Part shown: positions 59,434-59,658 of the stretch, piece after piece | Layout: each line of letters opens with the position of its first letter | How positions within the stretch are numbered: the stretch's first letter is position 1 | Assembly (NCBI RefSeq): GCF_003790525.1 | Contig: NZ_CP033635.1 | Length of the DNA: 64,000 nucleotides | Source of the DNA: Escherichia coli | GTDB taxonomy: Bacteria; Pseudomonadota; Gammaproteobacteria; Enterobacterales; Enterobacteriaceae | Direction: 5' to 3' (one strand) | The notes under the pieces: generated by a model | Told to the model about the DNA's origin: nothing | What the model saw: only the letters and a program-made list of their open reading frames with translations | Databases searched by the model: none | Made by a program: the position numbers and the translations under genes

Positions 59434-59619
59434 TTAATCTTAAGGCAGATCTAACAAGGATATTGTTCTTCGATCTGCCTCTGCTACCCTTCCCGATGTC
59501 CTACCCTTACGCACAAAATCCCCTGACGCATAAATCGAGAAAAATGTATCGTACTCGAGGCAACTCTCACTTTTTCACACCAAATTAAAGTTTTGATCGC
59601 AATTACTTGAAATAAGCGT

Positions 59620-59640
59620 AATGGTTACTATAGTAAACAT
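59620..59640. promoter_or_regulatory. Palindromic putative operator upstream of the toxin-antitoxin pair
   Basis: Perfect 10-bp palindrome TACTATAGTA within GGTTACTATAGTAAACATTACC, about 25 bp upstream of the toxin start codon; approximate. Confidence 0.35.
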
Positions 59641-59658
59641 TACCACAAGGATGGATGT

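Follow-up and report, generated by a model that had tools for sequence, protein, structure and literature searches.

The analysis of the window, that is, the whole 64-kb stretch of Escherichia coli DNA, revealed a two-gene operon located 3' of rimO, which encodes a predicted toxin and its antitoxin. The next gene is dgcI, which is convergent with the antitoxin gene. The toxin gene comes first, an order that is the same in homologues, and it overlaps the antitoxin gene by 11 nt. The operon lies in a cassette that is 100% identical to NC_010498.1 (E. coli SMS-3-5). As the spacer between rimO and dgcI is only 46 bp long in K-12 (MG1655), compared with approximately 1 kb here, the cassette represents an accessory insertion with a presence/absence polymorphism. 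It was found in 1138 of 5426 complete E. coli genomes (about 21%), O157:H7 and SMS-3-5 among them. At the cassette boundaries, neither repeats nor a recombinase were found to mark either edge. The coordinates of all features are given in Table 1.

Table 1 Genes, promoter elements and symmetrical sequences at the toxin-antitoxin cassette, in window coordinates.
Feature	Position	Strand	Basis or remark
rimO	58108-59433	+	Left neighbour, followed by a 225-bp gap to the toxin gene
Toxin-antitoxin cassette, ~1 kb	59434-60433		Missing from E. coli K-12
-35 hexamer TTGAAA	59607-59612	+	Consensus scan
26-bp operator candidate GTAATGGTTACTATAGTAAACATTAC	59618-59643		Inverted-repeat search and cross-genus conservation
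Candidate operator unit 1, GTAA-TGG-TTAC	59618-59628		In the -35/-10 spacer
10-bp perfect palindrome TACTATAGTA	59626-59635		End of unit 1, TATA inter-unit spacer and start of unit 2
-10 hexamer TATAGT	59629-59634	+	Consensus scan; inside the 26-bp palindrome
Candidate operator unit 2, GTAA-ACA-TTAC	59633-59643		From the -10 to the predicted start site (~59641-59643)
Shine-Dalgarno AAGGA	59647-59651	+	Read from the sequence; 7 nt before the ATG
Toxin gene, 128 aa, PF06296	59659-60045	+	Pfam match, profile and fold
Antitoxin gene, 109 aa	60035-60364	+	N-terminal helical region and C-terminal XRE-type HTH (HTH_3)
Hairpin TTAGTACCCCTT-gatt-AAGGGGTACTAA	60392-60419		Between the convergent antitoxin and dgcI genes

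Several hairpins were observed around the two genes. The strong hairpin between the antitoxin gene and dgcI is likely the end of the toxin-antitoxin transcript. It was not called by the terminator scan and shows no T-run on either strand; because the T-run is missing, it is not a canonical intrinsic terminator. An imperfect hairpin, also without a T-run, is found just past the rimO stop codon at the left edge of the cassette (AGGCAGATCTAACAA / TTCTTCGATCTGCCT, 59443-59480), and may be where the rimO transcript stops in strains that carry the cassette. The 46-bp rimO-dgcI spacer of K-12 MG1655 holds its own hairpin, CAGGCCGGGCAAAATCATTTGTCCGGCCTG.

With regard to the toxin, the Pfam family PF06296 was matched with 113.8 bits (cut-off 27) over residues 1-124 of 128. 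Although Pfam names this family 'RelE', it is the one that holds V. cholerae HigB-2 (PMC11980606). A direct PDB search with the toxin sequence gave no match at E <= 1, and no NCBIfam family was found for this protein. A profile built from 25 homologues matched, within the PDB, V. cholerae HigB-2 chains only (E ~1e-4), and HigB2 chains were also the top fold matches of the AlphaFold2 model of the toxin (pLDDT 86).

The antitoxin carries an XRE-type HTH at residues ~48-100, for which HTH_3 scores 37.8 bits against a cut-off of 23. The best PDB match of its profile (24 homologues) is HigA-2, with an E-value of 1.3e-11 over residues 47-102, ranking above P22 c2, several controller proteins of restriction-modification (R-M) systems, and MqsA. 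The C-terminal domain of the antitoxin model superposes on the C-terminal domain of HigA2 with 1.1-1.3 A over 61-62 residues, and on that of MqsA with 1.8 A, while the top fold match of the full-length model is 5jaa_A. In the N-terminal region, AlphaFold2 predicts two confident helices, comprising residues 3-17 and 23-43, which may correspond to the toxin-bound conformation. The family and fold evidence for both proteins identifies the pair as a HigBA2-type module, composed of a PF06296 toxin and a HigA2-like antitoxin.

Type II toxin-antitoxin modules are, as a rule, autorepressed through a palindrome that overlaps their promoter. Upstream of the toxin gene, the consensus scan found a sole sigma-70-like site on the + strand, TTGAAA-16-TATAGT, scoring 10/12. 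An alternative -10, TACTAT, is present at 59626-59631, with a spacing that suits some other genera; in most homologous loci, two -10 candidates overlap, and one of them lies 16-18 nt from a TTG-type hexamer. A further sigma-70-like sequence, ATGTCA-17-TACAAT (9/12), was noted on the + strand at 60218-60246, inside the antitoxin gene, and is within the chance expectation of the scan.

The first-pass annotation had proposed that a perfect 10-bp palindrome within 59615-59645, upstream of the toxin gene, is a putative autoregulatory operator lying between the promoter and the Shine-Dalgarno sequence. Such a palindrome does exist: it is TACTATAGTA, which occurs a single time in the window. Its perfection over 10 bp is, however, not above chance, given that the window contains 50 perfect 10-bp palindromes compared with 78 +/- 9 in first-order Markov simulations, and that ~0.26 would be expected in the 225-bp intergenic region alone. 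The symmetry really extends over 26 bp, with two gapless 13-nt arms, GTAATGGTTACTA and TAGTAAACATTAC, that are complementary at 12 of 13 positions (92%). For palindromes of 26 bp with no more than one mismatch, the expectation is 0.035 per window (7 of 200 simulations contained any) and ~2e-4 in the 225-bp intergenic region. The window holds two of them, the second being the hairpin 3' of the antitoxin gene, at 60394. Given its TAGTAC/GTACTA ends, this hairpin was considered as a second operator, but the downstream hairpins of homologous loci are unrelated to it in sequence, and the resemblance was set aside as a coincidence.

The 26-mer can be laid out as GTAATGGTTAC-TATA-GTAAACATTAC, in other words as two 11-bp units, GTAA TGG TTAC and GTAA ACA TTAC, on either side of TATA. 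The -10 hexamer consists of the inter-unit TATA and the first two bases of unit 2. Consequently, the palindrome lies on the promoter itself and not between the promoter and the Shine-Dalgarno sequence as initially described, and the 10-mer is the junction of the two units plus the -10 hexamer rather than a recognition unit. The predicted transcription start site falls within the right arm; counted from the end of the palindrome, the Shine-Dalgarno sequence is 4 nt on and the ATG 16 nt on. No second copy of the 26-bp element was found in the window at up to 3 mismatches (0 expected). The sole extra GTAA-N3-TTAC, at 11992, is close to the chance expectation, and the 64-kb window therefore provides no evidence of a wider regulon.

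Conservation of the palindrome upstream of homologous pairs had been named beforehand as a test, and this conservation was indeed observed. A scan of one genome per species gave 40 loci encoding relatives of the toxin, from which a conservation set of 21 non-redundant Enterobacterales loci was drawn, with toxin identities of 44-75%. The genera represented are Escherichia, Kluyvera, Siccibacter, Enterobacter, Pluralibacter, Phytobacter, Pantoea, Pectobacterium, Proteus, Providencia, Morganella, Photorhabdus and Xenorhabdus. Every Enterobacterales locus whose upstream sequence was usable has its best match to GTAA-N3-TTAC-TATA-GTAA-N3-TTAC, searched on both strands of ~3.3 kb, 13-24 bp upstream of the toxin start. 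In the two-unit loci, 16-20 of the 20 specified positions are matched at this place, compared with 12-14 for the best match elsewhere.

Across the 21 loci, palindrome positions 1-3 (GTA), 8-19 (TTACTATAGTAA) and 24-26 (TAC) carry 0.9-1.9 bits of information, whereas positions 4-7 and 20-23 carry 0-0.8 bits. The 40-nt upstream flank shows 0-0.6 bits, with its peak at the TTG of a -35. As the loci were anchored by their best consensus match, the conservation is slightly inflated at the 20 specified columns, but the gap to the background is still large. The -10 columns are invariant or near-invariant (TATAGT or TATAAT). GTA and TTAC of unit 1, and GTAA and TAC of unit 2, also hardly change, while the 3-4 nt inside each unit vary. 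Since the cassette flanks are unrelated between genera and cannot be aligned, the conservation is specific to the 26-bp element. Within E. coli, 1124 of 1128 genomes share the same 43 bp, which comprise the -35, the candidate operator and the start site. A single variant was inspected, that of strain GmM062, in which C59638G alters the N3 spacer of unit 2 at a position that varies between genera as well. In an upstream control 43-mer (59540-59582), most genomes depart from the window, but one common SNP accounts for this, and the within-species contrast gives weak but consistent support.

Some loci showed peculiarities in their assembly or gene content. The E. coli cassette recurs with 100% identity in a contig assigned to 'Collinsella sp.'. 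Another, assigned to 'Paenochrobactrum sp.', differs by one base from Morganella psychrotolerans (L014) over the 130 nt preceding the toxin gene. Both contigs (L004 and L008) are probably mis-binned metagenome contigs. The divergent upstream region of E. coli BS-01 (L002, NZ_CP172816.1) was left out because it is garbled at homopolymers, probably by an assembly or sequencing error: homopolymer runs and small deletions abound in the toxin gene and in its spacer to rimO, and the antitoxin gene lacks an annotation. Truncated toxin frames were observed in L030 (54 aa, a second copy in Morganella psychrotolerans), L036 (103 aa, Phytobacter massiliensis) and L042 (98 aa). All three retain the upstream operator sequence, and L036 and L042 retain the antitoxin gene too. 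They may represent modules in decay, in which the repressor and its site persist.

The loci that depart from the two-unit layout are informative. In single-unit loci (L018, L025 and L032), GTAA-N3-TTAC persists directly 5' of the -10, and the central TTAC-TATA-GTAA has lost its right half. The unit of Pantoea allii and P. ananatis is TAGTAATCATTACTA, followed by TATAAT, and that of Providencia rustigianii is TAGTAAGGATTACTA, followed by TATGGT; in these species, the surviving unit 1 reads TAGTAA-N3-TTACTA. A more distant clade, comprising Betaproteobacteria, Rheinheimera and Geomonas (33-38% toxin identity), exhibits a CAC-N3-GTG palindrome in the -35/-10 spacer. This site consists of one unit of the same 4-N3-4 geometry, for example CCAC-TAG-GTGG or TCAC-TAA-GTGG, extended in one case to 13-N3-13. 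The recognition helix of the antitoxin is S-L-S-T-V-R-K-W-E-I in the distant clade and S-K-E-S-V-S-K-W-E-R in the main group. With regard to V. cholerae HigA2, the base-contacting residues R68, E71, N72 and R77 align to E76, S79, K80 and E85 of the antitoxin. As all four differ, a different operator sequence is expected.

Given its location on the -10 and its conservation among enterobacterial genera, the 26-bp element is very probably the site of antitoxin self-repression, i.e. the autoregulatory operator of the HigA2-type antitoxin encoded by the cassette itself. The regulatory role initially suggested for the palindrome fits the toxin-antitoxin reading in this form: the antitoxin is predicted to carry a HigA-2-like HTH, the site overlaps the promoter, and it differs when the recognition helix differs. 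What was observed is the symmetry, the promoter overlap, the cross-genus conservation, the families of the two proteins and a site that changes together with the recognition helix; from these we infer the identity of the binder and repression as the outcome of binding.

Other explanations of the conserved symmetry were also considered. The promoter elements alone (-10, extended -10 and discriminator) could be conserved without any repressor site, the symmetry being incidental; TATAGT/TATAAT is indeed central and most invariant, and palindromes that are perfect over 10 bp are frequent. No sigma-70 element, however, corresponds to the GTA of positions 1-3, to the TTAC that directly precedes the hexamer or to the GTAA...TAC reaching 9 nt past it, and yet these carry 1.3-1.9 bits across genera. 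In addition, the -35 region is far less conserved than the triplets, and the 26-bp symmetry is much rarer by chance than the 10-mer, as shown by its expectation of 0.035 per window. We regard this explanation as extremely unlikely. A host-encoded regulator that binds the site, and thereby ties toxin-antitoxin expression to a chromosomal regulon, is very unlikely. GTA-N5-TAC does occur at six other places in the window, though this is roughly as often as chance would give; in at least 13 genera, the motif accompanies the cassette in unrelated genomic surroundings, and the palindrome is different in the clade that has a different recognition helix, which a shared host factor would not predict.

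The symmetry could also reflect a hairpin, formed in the RNA leader or as a cruciform in the DNA, with no protein site. An RNA stem of -7.6 kcal/mol is possible, but this fold is no better than that of shuffled sequences (z = -1.0, with 30 of 200 shuffles folding equally well), and the toxin-antitoxin mRNA would lack the stem, as the predicted start (~59641) is located in the right arm. An E-value scan of 59300-60600 gave no Rfam match. Furthermore, the variable pairs 6/21 and 7/20 are complementary in 7 and 5 of 20 loci, respectively, which is about the chance rate, and where conserved pairs deviate, no compensatory change was found in the partner column. Base identity is thus kept while spacer pairing is not, which argues for protein recognition rather than a hairpin. 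With its fold, the Rfam scan and the covariation all negative, an RNA structure was rejected, and a hairpin of either kind has a next to negligible probability.

Three known systems are relevant to how an antitoxin could occupy the element. V. cholerae HigA2 represses its own promoter, as seen with a reporter in vivo, via one inverted repeat which extends from after the -35 over the -10 (PMC11006873), and protects 24 bp containing TGTACGC-N5-GCGTACA (PMC11006873). Operator DNA is present in PDB entries 8a0w and 8a0x, the latter being a HigB2-HigA2 tetramer crystallised on it. The two modules share a PF06296 toxin, the toxin-first order, an operator (here a candidate) between the -35 and the start site that covers the -10, and an antitoxin composed of an N-terminal toxin-binding region and a C-terminal XRE HTH domain for dimerisation and DNA binding. 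In contrast, the operator sequences are unrelated, and toxin identity is ~14% (structural alignment). Moreover, the V. cholerae site is a single 7-N5-7 repeat with a 12-bp half-site spacing, whereas two 4-N3-4 units 15 bp apart are found here.

The geometry of the element is identical to that of the C-boxes of restriction-modification systems (C.PvuII, C.AhdI, C.Esp1396I), such as GACTnnnAGTCnnnnGACTnnnAGTC, which comprise two 4-N3-4 palindromes and a 4-bp spacer in 26 bp. On the C-box, GACTnnnAGTC-nnnn-GACTnnnAGTC, two dimers of small XRE-type HTH proteins bind cooperatively (PMC2504287, PMC2647307). The proteins nearest to the antitoxin HTH in structure and sequence include C.Kpn2I (35% identity, 1.3 A), C.BclI, C.AhdI and C.Esp1396I. 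Nevertheless, the half-sites are GACT/AGTC there and GTAA/TTAC here, the inter-unit spacer is TGTA/CGTG there and the TATA of the -10 here, and the C-box belongs to a restriction-modification system, as opposed to a toxin-antitoxin operon between rimO and dgcI. C-boxes are located at and upstream of the -35, where OL activates and OR, which overlaps the -35, represses; both units here bracket the -10, so that only repression is expected. As half-sites, operon type and promoter position differ, the element is not a C-box and has only the geometry in common with it.

MqsRA provides a third point of comparison. The E. coli mqsRA promoter contains two copies of the MqsA operator AACCT-N3-AGGTT (PMC4894380). 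Like the present operon, mqsRA is a toxin-first type II module with a toxin of the RelE/ParE superfamily and a related antitoxin HTH, and has short half-sites 3 nt apart, present twice in the promoter. The MqsA palindromes are, however, ~32 bp apart instead of 15, and their sequences differ. MqsA also has a zinc-binding CxxC N-terminal domain, whereas the antitoxin described here has no such domain and no cysteines in its 109 aa. Its scores are below the MqsA family cut-offs, with 47.1 against 61.8 bits for TIGR03830, and 20.6 against 30 for the Pfam family MqsA_antitoxin, the match being confined to the HTH part.

If the element is the operator of the cassette's own antitoxin, two antitoxin dimers per site is a reasonably likely arrangement; we infer this stoichiometry, together with cooperativity, from the comparison of the loci and from the C-box analogy. 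The central block is confounded with -10 function, and independent evidence for an operator is therefore provided only by the outer GTA/TAC triplets and the TTAC/GTAA blocks beside the -10. The same four triplets would also suit a single dimer that is seated on the central TTAC-TATA-GTAA and makes auxiliary contacts. One dimer could occupy this central sequence (59625-59636), or the whole 26 bp, with the outer GTA and TAC acting as secondary contacts, for instance of the N-terminal region. The central 12 bp are the most conserved block, and V. cholerae HigA2 has a single operator and a disordered N-terminal region that adds DNA contacts by fuzzy binding (PMC11006873). Much of the central conservation is, however, accounted for by the -10 hexamer. 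In the one-unit loci, GTAA-N3-TTAC is kept and the central palindrome lacks its right half, the single unit of the distant clade is of the 4-N3-4 and not the 4-N4-4 type, and the 11-4-11 layout agrees with that of the C-boxes, which bind two dimers. For these three reasons, the 11-4-11 parsing was preferred over a single central palindrome, and occupancy by one dimer is considered unlikely.

With two dimers per site, each 11-bp unit GTAA-N3-TTAC would bind one HTH antitoxin dimer, either free or with the toxin on its N-terminal region. Occupation of unit 1 would fill the -35/-10 spacer, and occupation of unit 2 would cover the promoter from the -10 through the start site. RNA polymerase would be excluded from the occupied operator, switching off the synthesis of both toxin and antitoxin, and the operon would be derepressed once the antitoxin is degraded or titrated. 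The centre-to-centre spacing of 15 bp is that of the C-boxes and, by analogy, makes cooperative binding of two dimers likely. A more elaborate scheme is possible, though we put it forward only tentatively: the two dimers might assemble cooperatively as a tetramer on the 11-4-11 site enclosing the -10, following the plan of the C-boxes, and bound toxin might tune the dimer-dimer contact, resulting in a switch sensitive to stoichiometry.

A literature search by protein accessions and operator sequence returned nothing on this module, the two sequence matches obtained being unrelated, and this operator appears not to have been described before for the module. It is ordinary in kind, but its tandem geometry differs from that of the only characterised HigA2 operator. 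The analysis gives a precise definition of the candidate operator for a module that is found in many Enterobacterales and, among complete E. coli genomes, in about one in five, O157:H7 being one of them: two GTAA-N3-TTAC units around the -10, in which the four GTA/TAC triplets should matter and the N3 spacers should not. The CAC-N3-GTG clade, with its different helix and different site, provides a usable pair for specificity swaps. The C-box geometry suggests two cooperative dimers, unlike in the only solved relative, V. cholerae HigA2. If the tetramer scheme on the C-box plan is true, it would give the HigBA2 family a second operator type beside the single repeat of V. cholerae, and would link the regulatory logic of toxin-antitoxin and restriction-modification addiction-type systems through a common HTH/operator architecture.
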